Source of the DNA: an uncultured delta proteobacterium
GTDB taxonomy: Bacteria > Desulfobacterota > Syntrophorhabdia > Syntrophorhabdales > WCHB1-27
DNA: 64,000 bases
Direction of reading: 5' to 3'
Assembly: GCA_963810935.1 (NCBI GenBank)
Contig: CAWEPK010000009.1
Span: 64,001-128,000, forward strand
The notes beneath the pieces were generated by a model, which ran no database searches, was not told the DNA's origin, and saw only the letters and a list, made by a program, of their open reading frames with translations. The position numbers and the translations under genes were made by a program. Positions 34,751 through 50,518 of this stretch are shown one piece after another. The first letter of the stretch is position 1, and the number at the start of each line of letters is the position of its first letter.

Positions 34751-35895
34751 CAATCCTCCTTGAGGAGCGTTTCCATATATCCCTGCGTCCACCCCTCTAT
34801 CTCCCAGATGGTATCCAGGTCGTCTATCTCCCGTACAAAGGGGTGTCGGGCGAGCGCCTCCTCAACAAGGCGCGGAATATCGGTAAAGCCTATCTTTCCG
34901 TCGAGAAAGGCGGAAGCTGCCATCTCGTTGGCTACGTTGAGCGTGATGAGTGCGCTGTCGCCGGCGGCCAGCGCCTCGTAGGCTAGCTTGAGGGCCGGGA
35001 ACCGCGCGGTGTCCGGCTCGTAAAAAGTGAGCTTGCCGCGGCTCGCCAGGTCTATCCTGCCGAACGGTATCTCTTTGCGCTGTCCGCCGTTCAGCGCATA
35101 GGCGATGGGTATCTTCATGTCGGGGTAAGCGAGATAGGCCGAAAGCGCCCCGTCGATGAAATGGACCATGCCGTGTACGACGCTCTCGGGATGGACGAGC
35201 ACGCCGATCTTCTCCGCCTCCATGCCGAAAAGCCACCGGGCCTCTATGACTTCCAGCCCTTTGTTCATCAGCGTCGCGGAGTCGATCGTCACCTTTCTGC
35301 CCATCTGCCAGGTGGGATGGCGAAGGGCGTGCTCTGCTGTAACGCCTTTCAGCTCCTCCGCCGAATGGTCCCTGAAGGGACCGCCGGAGGCGGTTATGAT
35401 CAGCCGCTCTATCTCGTTCCGATCGACGCCCTGCAACAATTGATATAGCGCCGAATGCTCGCTGTCAATGGGAAGGAGGACCGCGCCGTCGCGCTGCCTC
35501 AGGCGCTCGATCAGCCTGCCCGCCATGACCAGGCTCTCCTTGTTGGCAAGGCCGAGGGCGTGTCCGCTTTTAAGCGCCTCGATCGTCGGCTCGAGCCCTA
35601 TGCTGCCGGGCAATGCGTTGACGACCATCCACGCGTCTTCGGAAATAACGGCCTTCATGCCCTCCCGGCCGGTCAGCCTGCGGGCCGCCCCGAAATCTAC
35701 GGTGTCCGCCAGGTCTTCACGCCAGATGCATGCGACGCGCGGCCTGAAGCGCCTTATCTGCTCGCTGAACAACCGTGCGTTTTCGCGGCAGGCAAGCGCG
35801 ACAACCTCGAACTCGTCCGGCTGGTTCGCTATCACCTCGAGCGTCGACCGGCCGATGGAGCCTGTGGAGCCAAGTATGATTATCCCCTTTTTCAT
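34750..35895 (-). CDS. dxr: 1-deoxy-D-xylulose-5-phosphate reductoisomerase
   Basis: LGSTGSIG, LANKESLV, PIDSEHSA, HPTWQMG, NKGLEVIEA. Confidence 0.97.
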   Translation of the reverse strand: MKKGIIILGSTGSIGRSTLEVIANQPDEFEVVALACRENARLFSEQIRRFRPRVACIWREDLADTVDFGAARRLTGREGMKAVISEDAWMVVNALPGSIGLEPTIEALKSGHALGLANKESLVMAGRLIERLRQRDGAVLLPIDSEHSALYQLLQGVDRNEIERLIITASGGPFRDHSAEELKGVTAEHALRHPTWQMGRKVTIDSATLMNKGLEVIEARWLFGMEAEKIGVLVHPESVVHGMVHFIDGALSAYLAYPDMKIPIAYALNGGQRKEIPFGRIDLASRGKLTFYEPDTARFPALKLAYEALAAGDSALITLNVANEMAASAFLDGKIGFTDIPRLVEEALARHPFVREIDDLDTIWEIEGWTQGYMETLLKED

Positions 35896-36686
35896 CCCCC
35901 AAACCCCGCGAGATAGTAATAAAGGAAAGGCGCCGTCAGGATGAAGCTGTCGATCCTGTCGAGGAGGCCCCCGTGACCCGGAATAAGACCCGACGAATCC
36001 TTAACCTCGTACACCCTTTTCGCAACCGATTCGAGTACGTCGCCCAGTTGCCCGAGAAGACCGATGAGGCACCCCACGCCGACCGAAGCCGGCGGAGCCA
36101 TGCCCTCCATTTTCCTGAACAGGAGCGTAACGACAGCCGCTCCCGCAAGCGCGCCGAGCAGTCCCTCGTATGTTTTCTTGGGACTGATAAGCGGGGCCAG
36201 CTTATGCCTGCCCATGCTTTTGCCGACAAGATAGGCCGCGGTATCGCTCGCCCATATCGCCAGCACCAGTGCAAGCGGGGCAAGGGGGGCGATCTCTTTC
36301 AGCCTGCACAGAAAGAAAAGCGGCAGCGCAAGGAAGACCTCGGCAGCCACAAGGACCGCGACCGCCCTCCCGATCTCTCTGTTCAGTGAAGCGTCCCCAC
36401 GTCCGGGACACGCCATCCTGAAGGCGAGATAGGCAGCAGGCGACAGAAGAAGCCACAAAGGGTAGAACGCCGGACCGATATACAGGGGCGCCAGGGTCAG
36501 GACAGCCAGGACCGTGAGCGTTTTTCGATTGGCCGCCTGCGCCATCGACATGAACTCGTATACGGCCGCCGCAAGCACGCACCCCATGAATATGAACAAC
36601 AGTTTTGCCGGCAAAAAAATGAGAATGAGGACGATTATGGGGCCTATGATCAGCGCGGAAAGAAGTCTCTTGCCGAAATCACCCAC
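35892..36686 (-). CDS. cdsA: phosphatidate cytidylyltransferase
   Basis: SDTAAY, ISPKKTYEG, GDVLES, KDSSGLIPGHGGLLDRIDS. Confidence 0.95.
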   Translation of the reverse strand: MGDFGKRLLSALIIGPIIVLILIFLPAKLLFIFMGCVLAAAVYEFMSMAQAANRKTLTVLAVLTLAPLYIGPAFYPLWLLLSPAAYLAFRMACPGRGDASLNREIGRAVAVLVAAEVFLALPLFFLCRLKEIAPLAPLALVLAIWASDTAAYLVGKSMGRHKLAPLISPKKTYEGLLGALAGAAVVTLLFRKMEGMAPPASVGVGCLIGLLGQLGDVLESVAKRVYEVKDSSGLIPGHGGLLDRIDSFILTAPFLYYYLAGFGG

Positions 36687-37405
36687 TTAAACCGCCTTCA
36701 GGGTGCCGAATCTTCTCTTTCTTCCCATGAAGTTCTTCAGCGCCTCCAGATAGGCCGCCTTCCTGAAGTCGGGCCAAAGCGTCTCCGTCACGTATATCTC
36801 GGTATAGGCCATCTGCCACAGCAGAAAGTTGGAGAGCCTCATCTCCCCGCTCGTCCTTATCAAAAGGTCGGGGTCCGGCATACCTGCCGTGTAGAGGTGC
36901 TTGCTGAAAAGCTCCTCGTCGATGCTCGTCTTTCCGTCCTTCGCCGCGGCATCGCATGTCAGCCGGGCGGCCCGGAGTATCTCCTCCCTGCCGCTGTACG
37001 ATAATGCGATGCTGAGCAGAAGGGAGCGGTTGCTCTTCGTCTTCTCCATGACACTGCTCAGTTGTTCCTGCAGCTCGGCGGGAAGGTCGCTTGTCGCCCC
37101 TATCGTGTTGAACCTCACGTCTTTATCGAGCATGAGGGACAGGCTCTCTTTCGAGGTAGAGGGCGAGCAACTGAAGGAGCGCCGTCACCTCGTTCCTGGG
37201 ACGCGACCAGTTTTCCTTGGAAAAGGCGTAGAGCGTCAGGTAAGGGATATCGAGCCTCTCGCGTAGTCGTCACTACCTCCCTTACCGATTCTATGCCTGC
37301 GATATGACCTTCAACCCTGGGAAGCGCCCGGCTCCTGGCCCATCTTCCGTTGCCGTCCATGATAATGGCGACGTGTCGCGGGAGCTTCCTCTTGTTTACC
37401 TCCAT
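36687..37405 (-). CDS. uppS: undecaprenyl diphosphate synthase; two +1 frameshifts (about 37255 and 37142)
   Basis: [13 protein letters not shown]; middle frame [31 protein letters not shown]. Confidence 0.92.
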
Positions 37406-37409
37406 AACG

Positions 37410-37967
37410 TCAGATCTCCAGGATCTCTTTTTCCTTATCGGAATAAATGGCGTCGGCCGAGCTTATGTACTTGTCGGTCGTCTTCTGGACGTCCTCCTGG
37501 AGCTTGAACACTTCGTCCTTCGAAAGCGCCTTGTCTTTCTCCATTTTTTTCAGCTTCTCGTTCGTCTCTCTTCTGACGTTCCGCATGGCCACTTTCGCAG
37601 TCTCCAGCATTTTGCCGCCGAGCTTCACGAGGTCTTTCCTGCGCTCCTCGGTAAGCCTGGGGAAGACGAGGCGAATGACCTTGCCGTCGGACATCGGGTT
37701 TACGCCGAGGTCCGACTTCATGATGGCTTTCTCCAGCTCCGCTATCGCGGAGGTGTCCCACGGCTGGATGGTGATGGTCCTCGAATCGGGCGCGGCGATG
37801 GCCGCCATCTGGTTGAGCGGCGTGGGCTGGCCGTAATAGGCCACCCTTATGTCTTCAAGGAGCGAGATCGAAGCAACGCCCGTTCTGAGCTTCGACAGGT
37901 CCTTTTTCAGAGTGCTTATCGTTTTCTTGAGCTTATCCTCAAATTCGGCCGGCAGCTCGCTTGCCAT
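37410..37967 (-). CDS. frr: ribosome recycling factor
   Basis: [36 protein letters not shown]. Confidence 0.97.
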
Positions 37968-37969
37968 AT

Positions 37970-38680
37970 TCACCCCCTGACGATAGTGCCCGTCCGTTCT
38001 CCCCGGACAACGCGCTTCAGGTTCCCCTTCTGCCTGAGATTAAAAACGATGATGGGCAGGTTGTTCTCCATACAAAGCGATATGGCCGTCGCGTCCATAA
38101 CCGCAAGTTTCCGCCTGAGCGCCTCGGTATACGTGACCTCCGGCAAAAAAACGGCGTCGCTGTTCTTCTCCGGGTCTTTGTCGTAGACGCCGTCCACCTT
38201 CGTCGCCTTCAGCATGATCTCTGCGTCCACCTCGACGGCCCTCAGGGCCGCGGCCGTGTCGGTCGTGAAAAACGGGTTCCCCGTCCCGCCTGCGAATATC
38301 ACCACCCTGCCTTCTTCGAGGTATCGTATAGCCTTGTTTCTGTCGAAGGGTTCTGCGACGTTTCCGACGGGAAGGGCCGTCTGCAGGCTCACCGGCAGGC
38401 CGAGTTGCCCCAGCCGGGATTTTAAGGCCAGGCAATTCAGCACTGTGGCGAGCATACCCATGTAGTCGCCCGTCACCCTGTCGATCCCCTGTTTTTCCGC
38501 GCGCATGCCCCTGAAAATGTTCCCGCCGCCGATGACGACCGCCAACTCGACGCCCGCCTCCCTGACGTCCTTGATCTCGGAAGCGATCTCGCCGATGGTT
38601 TGCGGGTCTATGCCGTAACCCGCCGTCCCCATCAACGCCTCGCCGCTCAGCTTCAGGAGGATGCGCTTATAAGGGGCCAT
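37970..38680 (-). CDS. pyrH: UMP kinase
   Basis: LLKLSGEAL, GGGNIFRG, DYMGML, FFTTDTAAALR. Confidence 0.97.
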   Translation of the reverse strand: MAPYKRILLKLSGEALMGTAGYGIDPQTIGEIASEIKDVREAGVELAVVIGGGNIFRGMRAEKQGIDRVTGDYMGMLATVLNCLALKSRLGQLGLPVSLQTALPVGNVAEPFDRNKAIRYLEEGRVVIFAGGTGNPFFTTDTAAALRAVEVDAEIMLKATKVDGVYDKDPEKNSDAVFLPEVTYTEALRRKLAVMDATAISLCMENNLPIIVFNLRQKGNLKRVVRGERTGTIVRG

Positions 38681-38685
38681 TTCCG

Positions 38686-39288
38686 CTATTCGACCGTCTC
38701 ACCCAACTGGTACCTTATAAACCGCCGCACGAGTATATGTTCGCCCATCTTCGCGATGAGGTCGTCGAGCAGCTTCTTGATCGTGACGTCCGGGTCCTTT
38801 ATGAACTGCTGGTCCATGAGGCAGGATTCCTGATAGTACTTCTCCAGTTTGCCTTCCGCGATCTTGTCGAGGATCTTGTCGGGCTTGCCGGCCTCTTTCG
38901 CCTGCTTCCTGTAAATCTCCATTTCCTTGGCGCGGACGTCTTCGGGGACGTCTTCCCTTCTGACGTAGGTGGGGTTAGCGGCCGTCACCTGCATGGCCAC
39001 GTCCTTCGCGAACGCCTGGAACTGGTCCGTCTTGGCGACGAAATCGGTCTCGCAGTTTACCTCCACCATCGTGGCGATCTTGCCGCCCATGTGGATGTAG
39101 ACCGCTATAGTCCCTTCGGTAGCGGCCCTGGTTGCCCTTTTCTGGGCCTTCGCAAGGCCTTTCTCGCGGAGATAATCGACCGCCTTGTTCATGTCCCCGC
39201 CGGAGACTTTGAGCGCCTCCTTGCAATCCATCAGACCGACGCCGGTCTTTTCTCTCAGTGTCTTTACCTGTTCCGCAGTTATATCCAT
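38686..39288 (-). CDS. tsf: elongation factor Ts (short form)
   Basis: LREKTGVGLMDCK, EVNCETDFVA. Confidence 0.97.
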   Translation of the reverse strand: MDITAEQVKTLREKTGVGLMDCKEALKVSGGDMNKAVDYLREKGLAKAQKRATRAATEGTIAVYIHMGGKIATMVEVNCETDFVAKTDQFQAFAKDVAMQVTAANPTYVRREDVPEDVRAKEMEIYRKQAKEAGKPDKILDKIAEGKLEKYYQESCLMDQQFIKDPDVTIKKLLDDLIAKMGEHILVRRFIRYQLGETVE

Positions 39289-39300
39289 CGGTAGCCTCCC

Positions 39301-40092
39301 TTACTCGCCTTCCACGACGCCGGCGTCGTATTTTTCTTCAAGCACGCTCTCGTCGATGAAAGGCTTGGGCCCTTCTTTTTCGTCTTCCTTACCCTGGAAT
39401 TCCTCTACATAAAGCGCCCTGCCTTCGAGCACCGCGTCGGCGATCTTCGACGTGATCAGCTTGATAGCCCGTATCGCGTCGTCGTTCCCCGGGATGATGT
39501 AATCGATGTCGTCCGGGTCGCAGTTCGTGTCTACGATGCCTACCGTCGGTATGCCGAGCTTCTTTGCCTCGTTGACCGCGATATATTCTTTCTTCGGGTC
39601 CACTATGTAGATAGCGCCGGGCAGCCTGTCCATGTTTTTTATGCCGCCGAGGTGCCTTTCGAGCTTCACTATCTCGCGGTCTATGCTCAGGGCCTCCTTC
39701 TTCGGAAGGACCTTGAAGATATCGCTGTTCTTCAGCTCCTCGTACTTCCGCAGCCTGTCGATGCTCTTGTCGATGGTCTGGTAGTTAGTCAGCGTGCCGC
39801 CGAGCCACCTGACGTTCACGTGGAAGGCCGAACAACGCCGGGCCTCCTCGACGATGGCCTCCTGCGCCTGCTTTTTTGTCCCGACAAAAAGAACGTATTC
39901 GTTCCGGGAAGCGACCTCTTTGACGAAGTTGTAAGCCTCCTTGAACATCTTGAGCGTCTTTTGCAGGTCGATGATGTAGATGCCGTTCCTTGCCCCGAAG
40001 ATGTAAGGCTTCATCTTGGGGTTCCAGCGTTTTGTCTGGTGTCCGAAATGGACACCGGCTTCGAGCAATTGTTTAATGGTTAAATTCGACAT
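39301..40092 (-). CDS. rpsB: 30S ribosomal protein S2
   Basis: [41 protein letters not shown] before ATG 40092. Confidence 0.98.
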
Positions 40093-40126
40093 CGGACCTC
40101 CTGGTTTTATCTTCCGCCTTTCGCGC

Positions 40127-40168
40127 TTCGGCCCAAGACACGAAAAGATTGTGCACCCTTGGGCCGAT
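40127..40168 (-). promoter_or_regulatory. structured rpsB 5' leader (possible S2 autoregulatory element)
   Basis: TCGGCCCAAG / CTTGGGCCGA complementary arms just upstream of rpsB; function inferred from position only. Confidence 0.4.
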
Positions 40169-40424
40169 TGAAAGACGTGCAGAATAAATACAACGTTCAG
40201 TATACGACAAAAAAGGGCCTTTCTCAAGAAGAATTAGGCCGGGCCGGCCGTTACCGGTATGCAAAATAAAACAGTCGCCCGCATTCCCAGGCGCGGACAA
40301 ACTGCCCCAAGGGAGGCGAATAATGAAAAGTTTTGACATTCAGGACACTTGTGCCTTGAACCTTAACCGGAACAAAACTATATTTAACGAATGGGAGTTT
40401 TCCAACTAACCTGGGGGTGTAAAC

Positions 40425-40691
40425 GTGGCTTGGCTCAAAGGTAACATCATGACGGCATTAGCAATCGGAATAGGCTCCGCAGTACTCGCGCCGTTGGTAA
40501 CGCCTGTCCTGTCGAAGGCCGCAAAGCCTCTCGCGAAAGCAGCCATAAAAGGAGGCATCTCCCTCCTCGAGGCGGGTAAAGAAAAGTTCGCCGAGATGCA
40601 TGAGGTCATGGACGACCTCATGGCCGAGGCGAAGGCGGAGATAGTTGCCGAGCAGGCCGCGGCGATAGAAGACCAGGGTAAGGACGCGTAG
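40425..40691 (+). CDS. small membrane-anchored protein, DUF5132-like (FezA/PacL-like architecture)
   Basis: N-terminal hydrophobic ALAIGIGSAVLAP, KPLAKAAIKGG, acidic helix DDLMAEAKAE. Confidence 0.75.
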   Translation: MAWLKGNIMTALAIGIGSAVLAPLVTPVLSKAAKPLAKAAIKGGISLLEAGKEKFAEMHEVMDDLMAEAKAEIVAEQAAAIEDQGKDA

Positions 40692-40698
40692 GCCGACC

Positions 40699-41199
40699 AT
40701 GATACCGGATGCTTTTATTACACACCGAACGGCAGGCAGGCTGCGGCTGCGGGTCCCATCCAGGAGAGGAAACCTTGTATATTTCGCTTCCGTGCGCGAC
40801 GCGCTCTCAAGCGTAAAAGGCGTGGACAGCATCGAAGTGTCGCCCATGACGGGCAGTATCCTCGTGCGCATGAGCGCGCCGTTCGAAGCCATCGACGCTG
40901 CGCGCCCGGCTGACCTTTTCAACGTCGTCGAGGCGCCTCAAGCGGAGGAGGGAGCGACCGGCCTCCAGACTTCCGTCTCGGCCCTCTTCGGCTCCATTGA
41001 CGACCGCATAAAATCCGCTACGGGAAAAGGCGTAGACCTCGCCGGTATAGCCTTTCTGGGCCTAGTGGCAGCGGGAATCTATCAGATAGCGCGAGGCAAT
41101 TTTACGGCCCCGGCCTGGTACACCGCTTTCTGGTACGCCTTCGGGGTATTCGGCAAGTCGGGCAAGAAAAACGGGGAAGGCGAAAAGAGCCCGACATAG
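40699..41199 (+). CDS. HMA_2-type (Arg-rich, Cys-less HMA) domain protein with C-terminal membrane segments, FezC-like
   Basis: HRTAGRLRLR..GVDSIEVSPMTGSILV; TM GIAFLGLVAAGIYQ and PAWYTAFWYAF. Confidence 0.8.
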   Translation: MIPDAFITHRTAGRLRLRVPSRRGNLVYFASVRDALSSVKGVDSIEVSPMTGSILVRMSAPFEAIDAARPADLFNVVEAPQAEEGATGLQTSVSALFGSIDDRIKSATGKGVDLAGIAFLGLVAAGIYQIARGNFTAPAWYTAFWYAFGVFGKSGKKNGEGEKSPT

Positions 41200-41231
41200 T
41201 AAAGAAGAACAAGCCGCCATGCTGCAAATAA

Positions 41232-41951
41232 ATGAATGAAGTGAAGGAGGAACCTAAAATGGAACCGAAGACAGAGGCAGGCGAAGCCAAAGACAAGATC
41301 GAAAACGATTTGGGCCGGGCAGGCACGGCAGTGAAGGAAGGCGTGGTCCGCAGCCTTAAGGGCCTTAACGAGATAGAGGCGGATATCGTAAGCCTGGTAA
41401 GGAATACCGTAGCAGACAGCCTTAAGCTCACCTCCGATACGGCGGGCATGAGCCTCAACCTTACGACGGAGGTCGTCAAAGGTGCGATAAGGGCGACCGA
41501 AGAGGTAGGCACGGGCCTAATCCTCAGCACCAAGAGCGTCACCAAGGGCATCATCATGGGCTTTGGCGACGTCGGCGGGGACGTGGTGGGCATTGCCAGC
41601 CAGACCGTTAAAGGCGCGGTCAAAGGGGCCGCAGAGGTCGGCGCCGACGTATCCATGGTCGCAAGGCGCGCCGTAGACGGGGCGATAGAGGCAGGAAAAG
41701 AGGTCGGGGTCAACGCGGAGGAGATGGCCAGGGTGGCTATATCAGGCGCAGTCGAGGCAGCCGGGACCATCGGCGTGACGGCAGTCAAGGCGGTCAGAGA
41801 GATGCTGATGGGCGTGGCCGAAGGCGTGCGGGACTTCGTAGGGACGCTGCTCGCCGCCAAACCGGCTGCGGCCGGCGCAGCCAAAGAAGAGAGCGGGACA
41901 CCAGAGGAAAGACCTTCCCCGCCCGAGCAGCGACGGAGGTCGAAAGAGTAG
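41232..41951 (+). CDS. Gly/Ala/Val-rich protein made of tandem 22-aa helical repeats
   Basis: About 7.5 repeats, consensus near KGAVxAAxEVGxDxxxxAxxxV; function unknown. Confidence 0.8.
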   Translation: MNEVKEEPKMEPKTEAGEAKDKIENDLGRAGTAVKEGVVRSLKGLNEIEADIVSLVRNTVADSLKLTSDTAGMSLNLTTEVVKGAIRATEEVGTGLILSTKSVTKGIIMGFGDVGGDVVGIASQTVKGAVKGAAEVGADVSMVARRAVDGAIEAGKEVGVNAEEMARVAISGAVEAAGTIGVTAVKAVREMLMGVAEGVRDFVGTLLAAKPAAAGAAKEESGTPEERPSPPEQRRRSKE

Positions 41952-41954
41952 TCC

Positions 41955-44900
41955 TTGGTCCGGATAGTTCACGCCGCTGTCAGCGGAAGGGTGCGCCTCA
42001 AGGTAGACGGCCTTCACGGGTCTCACGAGCTTAAGAAGTATCTGGAAGAAGGGCTCTCGAAGCGCGACGACGTAACCCACGTCTTTGCAAGCCCCCTTAC
42101 CGGAAACGTCCTAGTTCTTTATTCCGATCCCCGGACGCCGTCCGATATCAAAAACGAGCTTCACGCGCTCCTGCCCCTGAAAGACGGAGCGGAAAGGGCC
42201 GATGACGCCCGGCCGAAGAAGGCCGTCATACGCGAAGACCGGGTCCGTCCAGGCAACTTGAGGAAGCGCCTGGTCAGGGCAAAAGATACGCCCCCCCAGG
42301 TGCTCTGGCACATGCGGCAGCCGGCGGAGGCCGCCGTCGCCTTCGGCGCGGACTGCGAGACAGGGCTCGCCCTGGAGGCATACGGAGCGAGCCTGAAGCG
42401 CTTCGGTCCCAACCTGCTGCCGGAAGCGGTCCCGCGCTCCGGCTGGTCCATCTTCCTCGAACAGTTCAAAAGCCTTCCCGTGCTGCTTCTCGGGGTCGCA
42501 GCCGCAGTCTCGGTCTTCACCGGGGGCCTCGCGGACGCTGTAGTCATCATCAGCGTGGTAGGAATCAACGCAGCCATCGGTTACGTGACCGAAAGCAAAT
42601 CGGAAAAGATCATCCGCTCCCTGAAGAGCCTTGTGCGCCCGACAGCCCTCGTAAGGCGCGCTGGCGAGCTCGTCCAGGCGAACGTCGAAGACGTGGCGCC
42701 CGGCGACCTCCTGGTGCTCAGGCCCGGCGCCTACGTCGCGGCGGACGCGAGGCTCCTCCTCGCGCAGCACCTTAGCGTTGACGAGTCAGCCCTTACCGGC
42801 GAGAGCATGCCGGTCCACAAGACGACGGACCTCCTCGACGAGGCGGGTCTTTCGCTGGCCGACAGGACGAACATGGTGTACATGGGGACCCTGGTAACGG
42901 GCGGCCAGGGCCTCGCGGTCGTTGTTGCAACCGGCCCTTACACCGAGATCGGCCGCATCCAGATAATGGTGGGCGAGGCAAGCACCCCCGCCACACCTTT
43001 AGAGCAACAGCTCGACCGTATGGGATCGAAGCTCGCAATATTGAGCGCGGCCGTGTGCGCAGGTGTTTTCGTTGTGGGCCTTTTGCGCGGCTACGGGTTC
43101 GTCCGTATGCTCAAGTCGTGCATCTCCCTTGCAGTCGCGGCGGTGCCTGAGGGCCTCCCGGCCGTTGCCACCACCACCCTCGCCATCGGCATGAAGAGGA
43201 TGCGCGGGCATCATGTTCTCATCAGGCGCCTCGGGGCCATCGAAGCCCTCGGCTCCGTCCAGACCATATGCCTCGACAAGACAGGCACACTGACCCTCAA
43301 CAGGATGACGGTGACGGCCGTCTACACGGGCGAACGCCTGATGGATGTAGCGGAAGGCAGGTTCGTCTCCGAGGCAGGGGCGGCCGACCCGTATGCCTGC
43401 CCCGAGCTGTTGATGCTCCTCCACGTCGGCGCCCTCTGCAATGAAAGCGAGATATTCGGCTCAAACGGGACTTTTACCGTAACAGGCTCGCCTACCGAAA
43501 ACGCCCTCATCAACGTCGCGCTGGCAGCAGGCATCGATATACGGGGCTTAAGGGCAAGCTTTCCGCTCATGAATATCATCCACAGGTCGGAAACGAGGAA
43601 CCTGATGGCGACCGTCCACTCGACGAGCGACAACGGCAAATGTCTCCTCGCGATGAAGGGGAGCCCGCCGGAAGTGCTGGCCGGCTGCACCTGGTACATG
43701 AAGGACGGAAAGCGCCTCCCCCTGTCTGATGAGGTGAGGGACGAGATACAGACGGCCAACGAGGAGATGGCCGGCCAGGGCCTGCGCGCCCTCGGCATGG
43801 CGCACGCGGTCTCCGACAGCAAGCTGGTCCTGATGGAGAACGGCGACATCACGGTGAAGGACCTGACGTGGCTCGGCATAACGGGCATGACCGATCCCGT
43901 CAGGCACGGCGTAAAAGACCTCATCGCGGGCTTCCACAGGGCAGGCATAGACACGGTCATGATCACGGGAGACCAGAGCGCCACCGCCTATGCGGTGGGA
44001 AAGGAGCTCGACCTCGCAGGCGGCGAAGATATCCGGATCCTCGATTCGCGCCACCTCGCGGAGATCCAGCCGGAGGTGCTGAAAGGCCTTGCCAGGGGAC
44101 TCCACGTATTCGCGCGGGTCAGCCCGGCCCATAAGCTCCAGATCGTGCAGACGCTCCAGGATGGGGGCAAGGTCGTGGGCATGACGGGGGACGGCATCAA
44201 TGACGGCCCTGCCCTGAAGGCTGCGGCGATAGGCATTGCTATGGGGCATACGGGTACGGACGTCGCGCGCGAGGTCGCCGACGTAGTGCTCGAAGACGAC
44301 AACCTGGAGACCATGCTGATCGCCGTGAGCGAGGGGCGCACCATATACAACAATATCCGGAAATCCCTACATTACCTGCTCTCCACGAACATGAGCGAGA
44401 TCATAGTAACGTCCGTCTCGATGACGGCGGGGCTCGGAGAGCCGCTAACGCCCATGCAGTTCCTCTGGATCAACCTCGTATCCGATATCTTCCCGGGCCT
44501 GGCCCTCGCCCTCGAGCCGCCCGAGCCCGACGTCCTCCTCCGGCCCCCAAGGGACCCTGCGGAGGAGATACTGCAACCTGTCCGGCTCAAAAAGATGTTG
44601 AGGGAGGCAGCCGTCCTTTCCGCAGGCTCGCTCGGGGCATACGGGTACGGCCTGTCCCGCTACGGACAGGGGCCGGCCGCGGGCACCATGGCGTTCCTCA
44701 GCCTCACTATAAGCCAGCTCCTGCACGCGCTCACGTGCCGCTCGGAAAACAGGACGGTTTTCTCAGGCGAAAGGCAGGCGCCGAACCGCTACCTGACCGG
44801 GGCCGTCGCCGGCACGTTCCTGCTTCAGGGGGCCGCGATAGCCGTGCCGGGCCTGCGCCGCCTGCTCGGCATCAGCCGCTTGGGGCTCGTGGACGGCCTG

Positions 44901-44975
44901 GTCGCCGGCGGGGGCGCCGTTCTGCCCTTCTTCGTCAATGAAGCGCTTAAAAAGTCCAGGGGAGGCGCAGCTTGA
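41955..44975 (+). CDS. P2A-type (Ca2+-ATPase-like) P-type ATPase with N-terminal HMA_2 domain
   Basis: HAAVSGRVRLK..SPLTGNVLV; LTGES, PEGLP, DKTGTLT, KGSPE, MITGD, GDGINDGP, STNMSE, NLVSD. Confidence 0.92.
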   Translation: MVRIVHAAVSGRVRLKVDGLHGSHELKKYLEEGLSKRDDVTHVFASPLTGNVLVLYSDPRTPSDIKNELHALLPLKDGAERADDARPKKAVIREDRVRPGNLRKRLVRAKDTPPQVLWHMRQPAEAAVAFGADCETGLALEAYGASLKRFGPNLLPEAVPRSGWSIFLEQFKSLPVLLLGVAAAVSVFTGGLADAVVIISVVGINAAIGYVTESKSEKIIRSLKSLVRPTALVRRAGELVQANVEDVAPGDLLVLRPGAYVAADARLLLAQHLSVDESALTGESMPVHKTTDLLDEAGLSLADRTNMVYMGTLVTGGQGLAVVVATGPYTEIGRIQIMVGEASTPATPLEQQLDRMGSKLAILSAAVCAGVFVVGLLRGYGFVRMLKSCISLAVAAVPEGLPAVATTTLAIGMKRMRGHHVLIRRLGAIEALGSVQTICLDKTGTLTLNRMTVTAVYTGERLMDVAEGRFVSEAGAADPYACPELLMLLHVGALCNESEIFGSNGTFTVTGSPTENALINVALAAGIDIRGLRASFPLMNIIHRSETRNLMATVHSTSDNGKCLLAMKGSPPEVLAGCTWYMKDGKRLPLSDEVRDEIQTANEEMAGQGLRALGMAHAVSDSKLVLMENGDITVKDLTWLGITGMTDPVRHGVKDLIAGFHRAGIDTVMITGDQSATAYAVGKELDLAGGEDIRILDSRHLAEIQPEVLKGLARGLHVFARVSPAHKLQIVQTLQDGGKVVGMTGDGINDGPALKAAAIGIAMGHTGTDVAREVADVVLEDDNLETMLIAVSEGRTIYNNIRKSLHYLLSTNMSEIIVTSVSMTAGLGEPLTPMQFLWINLVSDIFPGLALALEPPEPDVLLRPPRDPAEEILQPVRLKKMLREAAVLSAGSLGAYGYGLSRYGQGPAAGTMAFLSLTISQLLHALTCRSENRTVFSGERQAPNRYLTGAVAGTFLLQGAAIAVPGLRRLLGISRLGLVDGLVAGGGAVLPFFVNEALKKSRGGAA

Positions 44976-46162
44976 ACAAGCACTTCGTATTTTCTTCCGA
45001 ATCGGTGACCGAAGGACACCCCGACAAGCTGTGCGACCAGATCAGCGACGCTTTCGTGGACCACATACTCCGGCGCGACCCGTACGCGCGCGTCGTCGCA
45101 GAGTGCGCGATATCGAACGCCATCGTTTTTATAGCGGTCCGCTTCGACAGCGCCGCCTCCGTCGATTTCCCCTACATTGCAAGGGAAGTGATCGACCAGA
45201 TTGGATATACGCACGCGGAGTTCAACTCGAAGACGTGCAGCGTAGTTACGAGCCTCCGCGAGATGCCTGCCGACGCTTACAGCCGCTTCGACGAGAGAAA
45301 CCTCACGGACGCAGAGATCGATCGCATTGTGGCCCGCAACCAGGTGACCGTCTTCGGTTTTGCATGCACCCAGACTCCAGCGTTCATGCCTTTGCCCATC
45401 TGGCTCGCCCACAAGCTGTCACGCAGGCTCACGTCGGTCCGCCTGCAGAACAGGCTCACGGACCTCGGGCCGGACGGTTGGACGCAGGTGGGCGTAGAGT
45501 ACGAGGACCGCAAGCCGAGCCGCATCCATAGCATGACGGTCATCGCGAGCACTACGCGGCAGGAGGTGACGCTTAAGACCCTGCACGAGATGATCATGGA
45601 GGAAGTGATCAAGCCCGTTTTCACCGACGAGACCTTCAGGCCGGATGAAAAGACGCGCATTTTCATAAACCCGGACGGCCTCTTTTACGGCGGCGGCCCG
45701 TCCGTCCACAGCGGTCTCACGGGTAGGAAGAACGCAATCGATACGTACGGCGAGTACTCGCGCCACAGCGGCGCCGCATTAAGCGGCAAGGACCCGCTGC
45801 GGATCGACCGCTCCGGGGCATACGCCGCGCGGTACGCCGCAAAGAACGTAGTGGCCGCCGGGTTGGCAGAGGAGTGTGAGGTTACTTTGAGCTACACCAT
45901 AGGGCTCGCGCAGCCCGTGAGCATACAGGTGGAGACCTTCGGCACGGGCAAGCTGTCGGACGATGATATCGTCGCCCTTGTCGGCCGCCATATCGATTTC
46001 CGTCCCGCCGCGGTCCTGCGGCAGTTCAACCTCCGCTATCTCCCGTCAACGGTCAAGGGCGGCTTCTACCGCCGCCTGGCCGCTTACGGACACGTAGGGC
46101 GCATGGATATAGGCCTTCCCTGGGAGGTAACGGACAGGGCGCGCCTCCTCCGGTCGGGCTGA
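44972..46162 (+). CDS. divergent methionine adenosyltransferase (MetK)-fold protein
   Basis: SESVTEGHPDK, GLTGRK, DTYG, SGKD present; GAGDQG and QSPDI motifs absent; TTG start overlaps ATPase stop. Confidence 0.85.
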   Translation: MNKHFVFSSESVTEGHPDKLCDQISDAFVDHILRRDPYARVVAECAISNAIVFIAVRFDSAASVDFPYIAREVIDQIGYTHAEFNSKTCSVVTSLREMPADAYSRFDERNLTDAEIDRIVARNQVTVFGFACTQTPAFMPLPIWLAHKLSRRLTSVRLQNRLTDLGPDGWTQVGVEYEDRKPSRIHSMTVIASTTRQEVTLKTLHEMIMEEVIKPVFTDETFRPDEKTRIFINPDGLFYGGGPSVHSGLTGRKNAIDTYGEYSRHSGAALSGKDPLRIDRSGAYAARYAAKNVVAAGLAEECEVTLSYTIGLAQPVSIQVETFGTGKLSDDDIVALVGRHIDFRPAAVLRQFNLRYLPSTVKGGFYRRLAAYGHVGRMDIGLPWEVTDRARLLRSG

Positions 46163-46194
46163 CGACATTTCCACAGCACGCGAGGTTTTAAGGT

Positions 46195-47256
46195 TTGAGC
46201 CAAGAGGAGCAGATCCCTAAAATTACGAGATCGGCCGAGTTCGGCTACGAGCAGGAGCGCTCCCTGAAGAGGATGAAGCTCTTCGCTACGGCCCTTCTCG
46301 TCCTTATGGCCGTTATTTATTGCATAAGCCGCATCCTTTTGCCGCGATATCCTTTTCTCGGCTTCGTCGCGGCTTTCAGCGAGGCAGGAACCGTAGGCGC
46401 CCTTGCCGATTGGTTCGCCGTCGTGGCGCTCTTCCGCCATCCACTGAACCTGCCCATCCCCCGGACCGGGGTTATCCCGCGCAACAGGGACAGGATAGGC
46501 GAGAGCCTGGCCCGTTTCTTCAACGTGAACTTCCTGACGAAAGACCTCCTGGAGAAGAAAATGGCCTCCGTGGACCTGGCGGGCCTTCTGGCCGCCTGGC
46601 TCGCAGACGAGCGGAACGCCCAGCTCATTGCGCGGACCGCGGCCGAATACGCCCCTTCCCTGCTTCAGAACAAATGTGAAGAAAAACATGACGCCGAGCC
46701 CGCTGCCGGCCGGCCCGAAAAAGGACTTGCCCACTTCTTAGGCAGCGCGACAGAGGCAGACAGCAAGCAGACGTCCATGCGAAGCGCCGCCTTTCGCTTC
46801 CTCTCCGGTCTCGACCGCATGGGGCTTTCTCTCTACGACCGTTTGCTCGCCCCGGTCGGCCGCGCTGTATCCGGGTTCTACGACGGCGGGCTGCGCCGCA
46901 AGATCGGTGAGAAACTCCTCGAAGAGCTGAGCAACCCGGACTCCGAGCTTGTGCGCCAGGCAGCAGACTTTATCAAGAACGCAGGGCAGGAGGCGATAAG
47001 GGACAACGATCTCAGGGAAAGGATCAACAAAGGTCTGCGCGCATGGATATCGGAGGCAGTCGAAGAGAATAAAGAGCTTTTTACTGTCTTCATATCGGAT
47101 ACGGTCAGGAAATGGGACCCCGTAGCTACCAGCAGGCGGATCGAGCTGCACGTGGGCAAGGACCTGCAATGGATAAGGATAAACGGCACCATCGTAGGCG
47201 GGCTCGCCGGGCTCCTTATTTACCTCTTCACTTTTTTATTGCGGGGCATTCAATAA
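46195..47256 (+). CDS. DUF445 family membrane protein
   Basis: EAGTVGALADWFAVVALFRHP, IELHVGKDLQWIRINGTIVGG. Confidence 0.9.
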   Translation: MSQEEQIPKITRSAEFGYEQERSLKRMKLFATALLVLMAVIYCISRILLPRYPFLGFVAAFSEAGTVGALADWFAVVALFRHPLNLPIPRTGVIPRNRDRIGESLARFFNVNFLTKDLLEKKMASVDLAGLLAAWLADERNAQLIARTAAEYAPSLLQNKCEEKHDAEPAAGRPEKGLAHFLGSATEADSKQTSMRSAAFRFLSGLDRMGLSLYDRLLAPVGRAVSGFYDGGLRRKIGEKLLEELSNPDSELVRQAADFIKNAGQEAIRDNDLRERINKGLRAWISEAVEENKELFTVFISDTVRKWDPVATSRRIELHVGKDLQWIRINGTIVGGLAGLLIYLFTFLLRGIQ

Positions 47257-47275
47257 CGCGGGGAAATGCAGGTTC

Positions 47276-47584
47276 CTATATGAAGGCGGCGATCAGGGAG
47301 AGGACTTTCCCGGCCGCCTCGTGGATATACTGGTCGTTGGTAATCGCCTTGGACGGATCGAAGTATCCCACGCGCACGAGGACCGAGAGGATCTCGTCCC
47401 TCTTCGCCTTTTTCGGGTCGTAGTTGACCAGGCAGCTTCCCGTCCTGGTATTCACTGCGACGCTTGCCACGCCGCTTATCGTCTGGAGAAGACCCTCGAC
47501 CGCGCAGGCCGCCTCGCTATTGTTCTTCATGAAAGGCGTCATTATTCTCAGTCGTCCGGGCAGATCATGCACGTAATGGCTCAT
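47276..47584 (-). CDS. stand-alone HMA_2-type domain protein
   Basis: YVHDLPGRLRI..GVASVAVNTRTGSCLVNYDP. Confidence 0.82.
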   Translation of the reverse strand: MSHYVHDLPGRLRIMTPFMKNNSEAACAVEGLLQTISGVASVAVNTRTGSCLVNYDPKKAKRDEILSVLVRVGYFDPSKAITNDQYIHEAAGKVLSLIAAFI

Positions 47585-47587
47585 GCT

Positions 47588-47920
47588 CTACTCTCCTTCT
47601 TCAGGCGTTGTCCTCTCTTCTATTTTTGCTTTCACGTACGTGCGGCAATCGGGATAACGGCTGCACCTGAATACCGCGTTGCCGTCTTTTTTTCTCTTGA
47701 ACAGGTGGGTGATTCCCCCGCAGGCGGGGCAGTCGGGCCTTATCCCCGGGCTGCGCCTCTCGCTGCCCGGTATGAACTGCCGGTTGCACATCATGCAGAT
47801 GTAGCGCTGCCGGCTCCTGGCCCATCCGTATTTATATATTGCCCGCGATCCGCACGAAGGACAGCTTACCGCGTTCTGCCCTTCCTCTCCGTTTTGGCCG
47901 TCATGTAGTTCCTGTTGCAT
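47588..47920 (-). CDS. double zinc-ribbon protein (InsA-like ribbon + topoisomerase C4-like ribbon)
   Basis: CPSCGS..YKYG..QRYICMMC..QF and CPACG..FRCSRYPDC. Confidence 0.7.
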   Translation of the reverse strand: MQQELHDGQNGEEGQNAVSCPSCGSRAIYKYGWARSRQRYICMMCNRQFIPGSERRSPGIRPDCPACGGITHLFKRKKDGNAVFRCSRYPDCRTYVKAKIEERTTPEEGE

Positions 47921-48084
47921 ACATATCAGTCTATATGCGGTTTGTTAATCCTTTATTTCCCGTATGTTAATTTTTAGTAAACTCGCACGTCCCGACACAT
48001 TTGCGGAGTGTGTGCACAATGAGACGGGCAGACTATTGTCCTCTGTTGGGAAAGGTTCTTGCGTCAGAAGGCTGCGTATGTTTC

Positions 48085-48405
48085 TTACACGACGACTTTA
48101 AGGACGCCCGTAGCGGACTCGCAGGCCATTTCAATGCATTCCTCAAGATAATCATCGGGCGTTCTTGCTTGTGAATGGTTGAAAAAGCCGCTTTCGTCCA
48201 GTACTCGCAGGAGCTTGTCGTGATCGAGCTTCGCGGGGTCGTAAAGGATCAGAGCGCTGCCGATCTCCGGCCTTAGCTTGACCGAAGAGACGCCCTCGAT
48301 GAGTGCGATGAAGTCATGGAAGTGATCTATATTCGGACTGCCCGTCTTCAAGGCAGGGCTCTCGATCCTGAGCCGTCCCGGCGTGTCGGCCATATAGTAG
48401 TTCAT
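48085..48405 (-). CDS. stand-alone HMA_2-type domain protein
   Basis: YYMADTPGRLRI..GVSSVKLRPEIGSALILYDP; paralog of 47276-47584. Confidence 0.78.
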   Translation of the reverse strand: MNYYMADTPGRLRIESPALKTGSPNIDHFHDFIALIEGVSSVKLRPEIGSALILYDPAKLDHDKLLRVLDESGFFNHSQARTPDDYLEECIEMACESATGVLKVVV

Positions 48406-48494
48406 TATATCCCTCCTTGCTGTCCGTCGTACGGCCCGTTCCTATTATAATACGGCGCGACGGCAGGTCCCCGGCCTTTTTCGCTGACGGCCCC

Positions 48495-49127
48495 TTAAAC
48501 TTTCTTTGCGTAGATGTTCTTGCAGATATTGACGCCGGCCACTGCGTCGGGAGCATAATAGTCGGCGCCCGTAAATGCCTGCACCTGCTCGTTGCACGGC
48601 GCCCCGCCGATGACGATCTTCACACGGTCTCGCAGGCCCGCCCTGCCCACTTCGTCGACCACGTTCTTCATCTCGGGATACGTCAGGTTGAGGAGCGCGC
48701 TCAGGCCGAGGACTGCCGCCCCGCTCTCCTTAAGGGCGGACACGAACTTATCGGCTGAAACGTTCACCCCCAGGTCGATCACCTCGAAGCCCGAACCGCG
48801 AAGCAGAGTGACGGCGATGTTCTTCCCGATATCATGGATGTCGCCTTTTACCGTCCCTATGACGACCTTGCCGGCCGACGGCTCCCCGGCAGCATTCTGG
48901 AGAAGGGGCTCGAGGCGCTTCATCACGTTCTTCAATATCTCGGCCGAGAAGATGAGCTGGCTGATGAAATACCGGCAGCTCGAAAAAAGCTCGCCCACCT
49001 CTACCATGCCGCGGTTGCACGCCTTCACGATCTCGATGGCCGGCACTCCCTGTGCGATCTTTTCCTCCACCAGACTGTAAACGCGCTTTTCTTCGAGGTC
49101 CCGCAGTGCCTTGACAAGGTCTTCCAT
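48495..49127 (-). CDS. corrinoid (B12-binding) protein, MtaC/MtbC family
   Basis: GTVKGDIHDIGKN, DLGVNV, SALL, IGGAP. Confidence 0.93.
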   Translation of the reverse strand: MEDLVKALRDLEEKRVYSLVEEKIAQGVPAIEIVKACNRGMVEVGELFSSCRYFISQLIFSAEILKNVMKRLEPLLQNAAGEPSAGKVVIGTVKGDIHDIGKNIAVTLLRGSGFEVIDLGVNVSADKFVSALKESGAAVLGLSALLNLTYPEMKNVVDEVGRAGLRDRVKIVIGGAPCNEQVQAFTGADYYAPDAVAGVNICKNIYAKKV

Positions 49128-49153
49128 GATGTCTCCCTCCTCTCTGTAACGCT

Positions 49154-50518
49154 CTACAGAACCCACTGCCACAGCCAGACGTATGCCATGGCCTCCAGAC
49201 TTTCCCAGGGTTTGCGGATAAGGCCCTCGTCGCCCATGACTCCGCCTGACTCCGCCTGCCTCACATGCCACGGCGTCACCATCCTCGGGAAGGAAAACCC
49301 CTCGATCCCGCCTTTCGGGGGCGTTTTCGGCCGTGCCTTTGTACCGGCGTCGTAAACGCCGTATTCGCAGACGGCGTCTATCATCGCCCGGAAGTTCTCA
49401 GGCTTCGCCGTATAAGGGAAGTTGCAGCCGCCGCTTACGATGTAGCCGCCGCCTTTACCTACTGTCTCGCAGAGCAACTTTACCTGTTTGCGCATCTCTT
49501 CCGGCGTGCCGAGGATGAACTGCGAATCCTTGATGCCGCCCGCCAGGCACTGGTGGTGGCCTATCTCCTCCTTGGCCTTGAAGATATCGCCCTCGTTGTC
49601 GATGTCGCAAAGCACCTTGCCTTTCGGCAGCTCGAGCATGTGGCGCCAGTGCATCCCCCAATCGCCTTCGAGGTACGCCCTGACCGTGTGCCCGGCGCCT
49701 ATTAGTATCTCCATCACTTTTTTGAAAGAGGGCCAGTAGAACTGCTCGAACTGGTCGGGAGACAAAAAGCAGGCCTTATGGGTCGGCACGAAGATGGGCC
49801 AACGCTTAAGCGGGTCCGCCAGGGCCAGGGCTATGTTGGCCATCTCGCCGACCAGGGAATCGCACGCAGCTATCACCTTTTCCGGCTGGCGGTAGCAATC
49901 TAGGAAAATCCCGGTCAGGCCGCGCATCGCGTCTGCGAGCACGTCGAAGGGCGCCAGGAAAAAGCCGGCCATCGGCTGCGGCATGCCTGCTTCGTTCTGC
50001 AGGACGGCTGTCCGGTTCCGCATCACCTGGCCCGCCATAGCCTGCGCCATCCCGCCTTTGAGGAACGCCATGTACGACCGGATGGACCCGCGCTCGCCGA
50101 ACTCGCCGAATATCCTCGGCAGCCATCTTTCGAAGAGGAATTCGACGGGCCTTTCGATCAGGATGTCATATTCGTCCGCCTTCATATATTCTTCTTCGAC
50201 AAACTGGAACTGGTCGCCGGGCGGCAGGTCGCGGCCGGGCAGCTTATACGTCTTCAGCCCCACGGCGTCGAATAGCGGCCCGTAAATACGGTTATTCCTC
50301 AGTACGTCGACTTCCGGGAAATCACGGCAGAAGGCAAGCTCGGCCTGTAGCCACTTTTCGGGGTCGTAGATCGTTTCCTGGTTGGTGTTGCCTGAGTAGA
50401 CCTCGGCGAAATAGTTGCTCCCCGGGGCAATCGGTATGCGGTCGGTCGGCTCCAGGGCGATGGCGGCCTGGTAGCGGCCAAGCCTCTGCTCGAAAAGCTC
50501 GTTCATCTGAGCCGTCAT
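49154..50518 (-). CDS. UroD/MtaA-family protein (probable corrinoid-dependent methyltransferase)
   Basis: DRIPI, EYMKADEYD, APFD..RG, FLSPDQFEQFYWP, GTPEE, GGYIVSGGC, KPENF; next to corrinoid protein. Confidence 0.85.
   Translation of the reverse strand: MTAQMNELFEQRLGRYQAAIALEPTDRIPIAPGSNYFAEVYSGNTNQETIYDPEKWLQAELAFCRDFPEVDVLRNNRIYGPLFDAVGLKTYKLPGRDLPPGDQFQFVEEEYMKADEYDILIERPVEFLFERWLPRIFGEFGERGSIRSYMAFLKGGMAQAMAGQVMRNRTAVLQNEAGMPQPMAGFFLAPFDVLADAMRGLTGIFLDCYRQPEKVIAACDSLVGEMANIALALADPLKRWPIFVPTHKACFLSPDQFEQFYWPSFKKVMEILIGAGHTVRAYLEGDWGMHWRHMLELPKGKVLCDIDNEGDIFKAKEEIGHHQCLAGGIKDSQFILGTPEEMRKQVKLLCETVGKGGGYIVSGGCNFPYTAKPENFRAMIDAVCEYGVYDAGTKARPKTPPKGGIEGFSFPRMVTPWHVRQAESGGVMGDEGLIRKPWESLEAMAYVWLWQWVL

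Follow-up and report, generated by a model that had tools for sequence, protein, structure and literature searches.

A homologue of S-adenosylmethionine (SAM) synthetase (MetK) that lies directly behind a Ca2+-type P-type ATPase, in the company of small proteins of the kind associated with ferrosomes, raises the question of what such a set of genes could do together. The locus in question occupies positions 40,425 to 48,405 of a 64,000-nucleotide stretch of DNA (hereafter the window) from an uncultured delta proteobacterium of the order Syntrophorhabdales (GenBank assembly GCA_963810935.1, contig CAWEPK010000009.1, positions 64,001 to 128,000 of the forward strand). In an initial annotation, made from the sequence without database searches, the locus was taken for a ferrosome- or effluxosome-like system built on a P2A pump. 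Here we find that the operon (g1 to g9 in Table 1) is a real system, conserved across several phyla. Its best-supported core is a P2A pump (g4) with a rebuilt nucleotide pocket and, docked on it according to structure prediction, a subunit with the methionine adenosyltransferase (MAT) fold (g5); the rebuilt pocket and the predicted docking, both overlooked in the initial annotation, are the strongest points. To our knowledge, no P-type ATPase has a soluble, SAM-synthetase-derived subunit, and a literature search, with most subscription papers outside it, found neither such a subunit nor any description of the operon, the MetK paralog or the Arg pocket.

The P2A pump and the MetK paralog

GTDB genomes were scanned with the g5 alignment, and the best 80 loci among the matches listed comprise 42 loci of a g5 clade and 38 loci of canonical metK. 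In a quick tree of 78 MetK rows (rows of up to 300 residues excluded) the two groups fall on opposite sides of one branch, with a Shimodaira-Hasegawa-like approximate likelihood ratio support of 100. Among the matches listed, the g5 clade ranges over Thermodesulfobacteriota, Nitrospirota, Cyanobacteriota, Pseudomonadota, Acidobacteriota and others. A gene-neighbourhood check proposed in the initial annotation came out in its favour: a P2A pump lies immediately 5' of g5 in 41 of the 42 clade loci (the remaining locus has no upstream DNA), at estimated distances of -9 to 145 nt, and the order g1 to g6 is preserved in 12/12 relatives fetched via the pump, several of which are frameshifted. This pump is found at none of the 38 canonical metK loci, two of which have an unrelated, 27% identical P-type ATPase, and 20 generic P2A pump loci (same order) have none of g1-g3 and g5-g9 nearby. 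When DUF5132, the family of g1, was taken as the starting point, 15 of 151 genomes matched, and 11 of the 12 clade pumps near these matches adjoin g5. A search of plasmid sequences for g5 returned canonical metK only.

The closest solved structures to g4 are LMCA1 and SPCA1 (E ~1e-143), and the motifs TGES, DKTGT, TGD, GDGxND and PEGL are all present, as are the Ca2+ ligands of transmembrane (TM) helices TM4-TM6. The pump scores below the cut-offs of the equivalog models TIGR01522 (617 vs 798 bits) and TIGR01116 (518 vs 703 bits). Its nucleotide pocket differs from that of other P2A pumps at two positions: residue 544 is Arg in 49/49 clade pumps and Phe in 16/16 generic pumps, LMCA1 and SPCA1, and residue 512 is Ser or Thr in 49/49 clade pumps versus Asp in 16/16 generic ones. 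We take position 544 to correspond to the adenine-stacking Phe of SERCA, F487. The ATP cleft of SERCA includes F487 (PMC7313052, PMC5259720). Among the top 150 pump representatives at 50% identity, position 544 is Arg in 145, a gap in two, Ser, Gln or Trp in three and never Phe; the nearby Asp is replaced by Ser or Thr in 143, and the Lys and Arg on the phosphate side are kept in 147 and 148, respectively. The Ca2+-site residues are conserved in 140-144 of these representatives, an HMA_2 domain is present in 127, and the TM8 site, which is the Glu of the second site in SERCA, is Gln in g4 and in 128 of them. Judged by these residue patterns, the g4 pump family is larger than its g5-linked part and is defined by the rebuilt nucleotide pocket. 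A large pump subfamily in which all 150 top representatives appear without the residue deemed standard for ATP binding poses a direct biochemical question.

The paralog g5 was compared with its canonical counterparts over 43 g5-clade and 39 canonical MetK rows, the counts varying with coverage. The methionine ligands of E. coli MAT are E55, Q98, I102, D238 and K269 (PMC3853416, PMC1282579). In the g5 clade, E55 is replaced by Arg (36/41), D238 by His (43/43) and K269 by Arg (42/42), versus near-invariance in the canonical rows; Q98 is mostly hydrophobic, I102 is lost, D118 is mostly Asn, and the GAGDQG motif of the gating loop is gone. The window copy has R, M, A, H and R at the five ligand positions. 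H14, D16, K17, E42, R244, K245, K265 and D271 are retained in every covering g5-clade row (the catalytic H14 in 41/41), all but the first of which we take to be triphosphate- and metal-binding residues of MAT, which, as its second step, splits triphosphate into pyrophosphate (PPi) and phosphate (Pi); D163 is kept in 40/41 rows, and F230 (29/43) and K165 (32/41) are relaxed. The role of H14 in the E. coli enzyme is described in PMC3853416. In addition, g5 has a conserved seven-residue insertion near its C-terminus. A canonical metK, 41% identical to g5, is encoded separately on contig C8 of this genome, and all five other genomes checked have one as well. We infer that g5 is not a SAM synthetase and that it carries a selected, more basic ligand site. 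With 377 bits it exceeds the cut-off of the metK equivalog TIGR01034 (309 bits), and g5-type genes annotated as metK in databases are probably mis-annotated.

A complex of g5 with pump residues 418-802 was predicted from 35-row alignments of each partner and one MAT chain, and scored 0.68 versus 0.00 for the best control. It passed the score mark, which 116 of 157 solved pairs and 2 of 215 mismatched ones attain, a rough guide here, where own alignments were used. Contact agreement between runs was at least 95%, and the predicted local distance difference test (pLDDT) of the partner at least 82. The predicted contacts join g5 residues 62-68 and 87-97 with pump residues 674-720 and residues 547-607 of the nucleotide-binding (N) domain, and the interface reaches residues 547 and 572, beside the rebuilt pocket. 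In MAT, the small inter-dimer interface comprises D64, E67 and K98 (PMC9202080); the docking surface of g5 maps to this interface and continues into what was the gating loop. On the pump side the interface has 31 residues, six of which belong to the 25 clade-specific positions (p 0.01), a count that is not independent, for the model used the same alignment. Furthermore, one genome, G118 (96% complete), yielded no MetK other than a canonical one. Its pump retains Arg544 and has 4 of 15 docking residues, like generic pumps with their 4-5, whereas 17 pumps with the partner, among them the comparably divergent one of locus L040, have 11-15. The operon of that genome (L170, G118:C2) consists of g1, g2, the pump, g7 and g8, without MetK paralog or g3. 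Docking of the MetK paralog on the phosphorylation (P) and N domains of the pump is, as modelled, likely.

Layout of the locus

The coordinates and Pfam domains (Table 1) agree with the arrangement first described, six packed plus-strand genes facing two HMA_2 genes; all eight of these genes stand, and a ninth, the zinc-ribbon gene g8 between the HMA_2 genes, had been overlooked. The gaps from g1 through g6 are 7, 32, 3, -4 and 32 nt.

Table 1. Genes and upstream elements of the locus (positions in the window)
Feature	Position	Strand	Basis
Conserved cis element, consensus AGGYRRGTAATGAAA, upstream of promoter	40312..40328	+	in 23/42 regions upstream of g1
Sigma-70-like promoter, TTGAAC-17 nt-TATATT	40356..40384	+	consensus match 9/12; divergent from rpsB
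g1, DUF5132 small membrane protein	40425..40691	+	Pfam 49.3 bits (cut-off 25)
g2, HMA_2 (CoBaHMA) domain and C-terminal membrane segment, FezC-like layout	40699..41199	+	Pfam 51.6 bits; hydropathy
g3, unnamed Gly/Ala/Val-rich helical repeat protein	41232..41951	+	period of 22 residues; seven helices; TM segment absent
g4, P2A-type ATPase with N-terminal HMA_2	41955..44975	+	closest structures LMCA1/SPCA1; residue tables
g5, non-canonical MetK (MAT-fold) paralog	44972..46162	+	all three S-AdoMet_synt domains in Pfam
g6, DUF445 membrane protein, accessory	46195..47256	+	Pfam 229 bits
g7, stand-alone HMA_2 (CoBaHMA), FezD-like layout	47276..47584	-	Pfam 52.0 bits
g8, small double zinc-ribbon protein, usually beside g7	47588..47920	-	Pfam Zn_ribbon_Top1 37.3 bits
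g9, second stand-alone HMA_2 protein	48085..48405	-	Pfam 34.3 bits; 40% identical to g7

The HMA_2 cut-off in Pfam is 30 bits, which g2, g7 and g9 exceed; the N-terminus of g4 lies slightly below it (27.7 bits). A motif scan bears out the earlier observation that these four proteins share a GRxRx motif and a G[SN]-hydrophobic strand without CxxC; the His placed in brackets before that motif is present in g2, g4 and g7 and missing in g9. As judged from sequence and hydropathy, g1 has a single N-terminal TM helix with small-xxx-small motifs and an Ala/Glu-rich tail. GxxxG occurs in 26 of 33 g1 homologues, the window copy having GxxxA, and g1 may play a FezA/PacL-like role. In two cyanobacterial loci (L009:6424-7008, L016:6165-6737) DUF5132 is joined to a stretch that faintly resembles the C-terminal portion of HMA_2, suggestive of a fusion of g1 with part of g2.

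The 22-residue repeat reported for g3 was recovered, with mean BLOSUM self-scores of 1.05 and 0.76 at offsets 22 and 44 versus -1.2 to 0.3 at other offsets. No family in Pfam or NCBIfam matches g3; its AlphaFold2 model has a pLDDT of 75.5, and the best structural matches are designed helical repeat proteins (Z up to 15), by which no family is named. A search with one homologue (P0133) returned Atlas clusters without names and one labelled 'Phasin family'; this name was rejected as an automatic cluster label without Pfam support. The repeat domain also occurs fused to MucR-type or response-regulator receiver domains (P0124-P0126, P0130, P0137, P0145, P0154, P0155).

All 22 loci that have long flanks contain g1 and g4; g2 is found in 19 of them, a g7/g9-type gene in 18, g3 in 13, g8 in 9 and g6 in 3, the counts for g2 and g7/g9 including cross-matches among HMA_2 proteins. 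Over all 42 loci, g8 is found in 13 and accompanies the stand-alone HMA_2 gene. The DUF445 gene g6, found at 3 of the 42 GTDB loci but in 12/12 close relatives, is accessory. Several other genes lie beside or near the operon: a P1B ATPase that bears HMA_2 and an ACPC motif (L024:3386-5578, L174:8021-10279; a similar pump is found in L178), phosphatidylserine-decarboxylase-like genes (L031, L032, L034, L038), and a small DUF3562 gene in seven loci (L004:6971-7258 and six others), usually 3' of the MetK paralog.

This genome also contains lone paralogs of g1 (C10:183060-183359), g7 (C7:14255-14587) and g2 (C17:231528-232274) with no adjoining pump, and eight further P-type ATPase loci. No Rfam family matched window positions 39500-49000. 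At 99-100% identity and a depth of 3-11, contigs of one metatranscriptome cover some of g3, g4 and g5 as well as the g3-g4 junction, and none lies over positions 46142-48600; as contigs, they cannot show transcription. Upstream, window positions 35892-40227 hold what we take, from the translations, to be the rpsB-tsf-pyrH-frr cluster, divergent from the operon. Downstream (48495-50518) lie apparently unrelated genes for a corrinoid protein and a uroporphyrinogen-decarboxylase-like methyltransferase.

The conserved element preceding the promoter occurs in 23 of the 42 regions versus at most 3 in 500 shuffles, its pattern having been drawn by eye from the regions in which it was then counted. 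It is found mostly in regions without a Pho-box-like repeat (see below), and a genome scan with the motif returned mostly matches that resemble ribosome binding sites. A conserved leader open reading frame was considered for this element and rejected, the ATG being missing in L023 and L111.

Phosphate and the function of the locus

From 353 non-core genes called in the 42 loci 149 were selected, and 128 proteins were scanned (126 and two other P-type ATPases). Recurrent neighbours among them are PstSCAB, PhoU, Ppk1, Ppx, Ppk2, PhoX, PhoH, PsiE, PhnH and divalent-cation transporters. A phosphate gene lies near 10 of the 42 loci (pst/phoU in 6/42), versus 0/38 canonical metK and 0/20 generic pump loci, a count for which the queries came from this genome and the canonical metK controls were not taxon-matched; close relatives have 3/12, PhoH only. 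An earlier count of 13/42 was dropped, its queries having come from the tested loci. Seven regions upstream of pstS were used to seed a matrix by eye, and with it Pho-box-like repeats with 11-bp spacing are seen to precede g1 in 11 of 42 regions at p <0.05; an unsupervised search, which settled on an AT-rich optimum, was discarded. Part of the family does have a link to phosphate; for the window copy it is unproven. Of the claim of a repurposed phosphate-handling enzyme, the repurposing stands, the methionine site being lost, and a tie to phosphate is seen in the related loci just mentioned and not in the window.

What, then, could the machine do? We favour, tentatively and at somewhat less than even chances, a single membrane machine in which g5 gates the P2A pump and which would most probably yield a Ca-phosphate store enclosed by a membrane; its ion, ligand, gating and compartment are what we infer. 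The pump would remove Ca2+ (or perhaps Mn2+ or Mg2+) from the cytosol. As a dimer, g5, having ceased to be a SAM synthetase, would dock on the P and N domains through the surface that forms the MAT tetramer, bind a phosphate-rich ligand (triphosphate (PPPi), PPi or ATP) in its retained metal/phosphate site, and gate the pump according to phosphate status. The proteins g1, g2, g7 and g9, together with the pump's own N-terminal domain, would gather the pump into a membrane patch, which the amphipathic repeat protein g3 might coat. If the pattern of ferrosomes, induced on shortage and filled on resupply, were followed, a membrane-bounded Ca-phosphate store could result.

A number of points weigh against this store. 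The step to a compartment is one of analogy. The window has no Pho-box-like repeat upstream of g1 (p 0.68, seeded matrix), no phosphate gene was found in the searched flank of its locus, and the queries used brought up neither Ppk1 nor Ppk2 in this genome. The window copy of g5 has Trp for K165 and Asn for D118, so that even its phosphate site appears eroded. As for the docking, the complex model left the oligomer surface free, and its controls were without canonical MetK or a generic P2A pump. Genome G118 is a single case, and its pump is divergent overall, with 0.67 of the consensus retained outside the interface, close to the 0.63-0.66 of generic pumps. The docking residues vary in the wider pump family, where most often 7-8 of 15 are kept, so that many members may have no MetK-type partner. 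Finally, the related loci are kin and partly duplicates (L001/L116 and L028/L165 are apparently identical DNA pairs), and the counts therefore overstate independence.

Slightly less probable, and a serious possibility, is that the same pump-subunit complex works at the cytoplasmic membrane in effluxosome-like Ca2+ export and forms no inclusion; the Ca2+ would be freed when phosphate stores are used, or be needed by periplasmic Ca-dependent phosphatases. LMCA1 is an exporter. So is CtpF, a P2A relative, and PacL, whose build g1 shares, scaffolds efflux pumps of the plasma membrane (PMC13460109); an R-rich motif occurs in CtpC as well (bioRxiv 10.1101/2020.01.10.902569). Furthermore, PhoX adjoins one of our loci, and genes for CorA, MgtE, a Na/Ca exchanger or cation diffusion facilitators lie near 7 of 42. 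However, these families of small proteins have three known settings, of which two (the ferrosome and the ccyA region) are inclusions, g1 belongs to DUF5132 and not to DUF1490, and simple export leaves g3 unexplained. Because of analogy alone, the Ca-phosphate store is slightly favoured over plain efflux.

We regard it as improbable that g5 still works as an enzyme, with a new acceptor, moving the adenosyl group from ATP onto an anionic non-amino compound, or hydrolysing ATP or PPPi, the pump using or supplying the product. The catalytic His and D163 are kept, the score exceeds the metK equivalog cut-off, and the new basic residues are near-invariant, which looks like ligand selection rather than decay; however, F230 and K165 are relaxed, the gating-loop motif is gone, and no recurrent substrate-supplying or product-using enzyme was found among the 128 scanned neighbours. 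About as improbable, or slightly more so, is that the pump is driven not by ATP but by another phosphoryl donor (PPi, PPPi, polyphosphate or GTP), which g5 might deliver. This would accord with the loss of the adenine Phe and the nearby Asp next to kept phosphate-side residues, and with an interface predicted to touch 547 and 572. On the other hand, Arg544 persists in G118 without g5, and Arg is able to stack on adenine. SERCA is not driven by polyphosphate (PMC13594633), though SERCA has the Phe. Mere co-location, in which a spare SAM synthetase shares an operon with a Ca2+ exporter and the two do not interact, would suit the standard names that both genes would receive and the other methionine-binding residues of archaeal MATs, by which an alternative solution is possible (PMC3853416), but is very unlikely in view of the charge reversal of both amino-group ligands in g5, the canonical metK in this genome and the five others, the strict adjacency of pump and g5, the complex prediction and the G118 pattern.

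Taken furthest, the favoured Ca-phosphate store would be a third type of bacterial mineral organelle, regulated by phosphate, with a new subfamily of P2A pumps, perhaps driven by PPi or PPPi instead of ATP, whose subunit of SAM-synthetase origin would sense or supply phosphate; in this full form we think it unlikely. The locus offers a third, testable setting for CoBaHMA and DUF5132 proteins, which were previously tied to iron and calcium-carbonate inclusions, and culturable hosts among the loci include Chlorogloeopsis fritschii PCC 6912 and Nitrosospira sp. Nsp14.

Comparison with known systems

Ferrosomes require the P1B-6 pump FezB with GxxxG and R-rich partners (bioRxiv 10.1101/2020.01.10.902569), and contain ferrous phosphate (bioRxiv 2026.06.16.732667). 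The locus is like fez in its small membrane protein of the GxxxG type, R-rich membrane and soluble proteins, R-rich ATPase N-terminus and mostly anaerobic hosts. It is unlike fez in its pump, a Ca2+-type P2A instead of a P1B-6 ATPase, and in the phosphate rather than iron genes near related loci; in the accessible text of bioRxiv 10.1101/2020.01.10.902569 no fez counterpart of the MetK paralog or the 22-mer repeat protein is seen. FezB is marked by the motifs D[Y/F]SCA and HNxxT; DxSCA was not found in any P-type ATPase of this genome, g4 having PEGL and P2A residues, and no iron-homeostasis family (Feo, Fur, ferritin) was found among the 128 neighbours scanned out of 353, which include one hemerythrin domain. 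The initial annotation was right to see fez- and CoBaHMA-type small proteins around a P2A rather than a P1B pump, as Pfam, motifs and P2A residues agree, and of its ferrosome likeness the partner features hold and membership, with no P1B-6 motifs, does not. The similarity of the small proteins to those of fez is present but faint: at locus L178 (G150:C5), a complete-looking fez cluster with a FezB carrying DYSCA and HNATT, a second P1B pump and FeoA, the neighbour of FezB matches the g1 profile (E 3e-6; pairwise E 0.023), and there are g7-like or HMA_2-like proteins, all below the Pfam cut-offs.

PacL, which has a single TM helix and a Glu/Ala-rich tail, is a DUF1490 protein that scaffolds P1B efflux pumps at the plasma membrane of mycobacteria (PMC13460109). 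Like it, g1 has a single TM helix, is Glu/Ala-rich and lies upstream of a P-type ATPase without a CxxC N-domain; unlike the PacL-Ctp effluxosomes, the locus has DUF5132 instead of DUF1490, no His-rich tail, a P2A instead of a P1B pump, and several extra genes. DUF1490 is not listed for g1 in Pfam at E up to 0.1, and g4 has no P1B match, its best matches being P2A models and structures; membership in the PacL family is not supported.

In Microcystis aeruginosa PCC 7806, ccyA and a Ca/H exchanger have DUF5132 and CoBaHMA genes at their flanks (bioRxiv 10.1101/2024.07.07.602159; PMC8890360), and PF19991 (HMA_2) is equated with CoBaHMA in the former source. The CoBaHMA features (PF19991, a basic patch and no CxxC) are found in g2, g7 and g9, above the cut-off, and in g4, just below it. 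The two neighbourhoods are alike in placing DUF5132 and CoBaHMA proteins next to a Ca2+ transporter, and differ in that the transporter is a Ca/H exchanger there; the accessible text of 10.1101/2024.07.07.602159 does not mention a MetK paralog. No protein of the locus was recognised as a calcyanin, judged without a calcyanin sequence for comparison; calcyanin has three GlyZip repeats of ~50 residues, and the period of g3 is 22. C. fritschii PCC 6912, which carries the present locus (L016), has ccyA but lacks carbonate inclusions, and in its relative PCC 9212 Ca-rich polyphosphate inclusions are numerous (PMC8890360), a link to calcium and phosphate that is suggestive only. The accessible part of bioRxiv 2025.12.07.689555 added nothing on pumps.

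Compared with canonical bacterial MetK (TIGR01034; E. coli MAT), g5 shares the fold, the catalytic His and most triphosphate/metal residues, and differs in its replaced methionine ligands and gating loop, the C-terminal insertion and an inter-dimer surface that is predicted to bind the pump. Similarly, g4 resembles the P2A pumps LMCA1, SPCA1 and SERCA in catalytic motifs and TM4-TM6 ion-binding residues, and is unlike them in its N-terminal CoBaHMA domain, the Arg for the adenine Phe, the exchange of the nearby acid for Ser/Thr, and the soluble MAT-fold subunit predicted for it. The operon works like a scaffolded pump platform and is a member of neither the ferrosome nor the PacL family.

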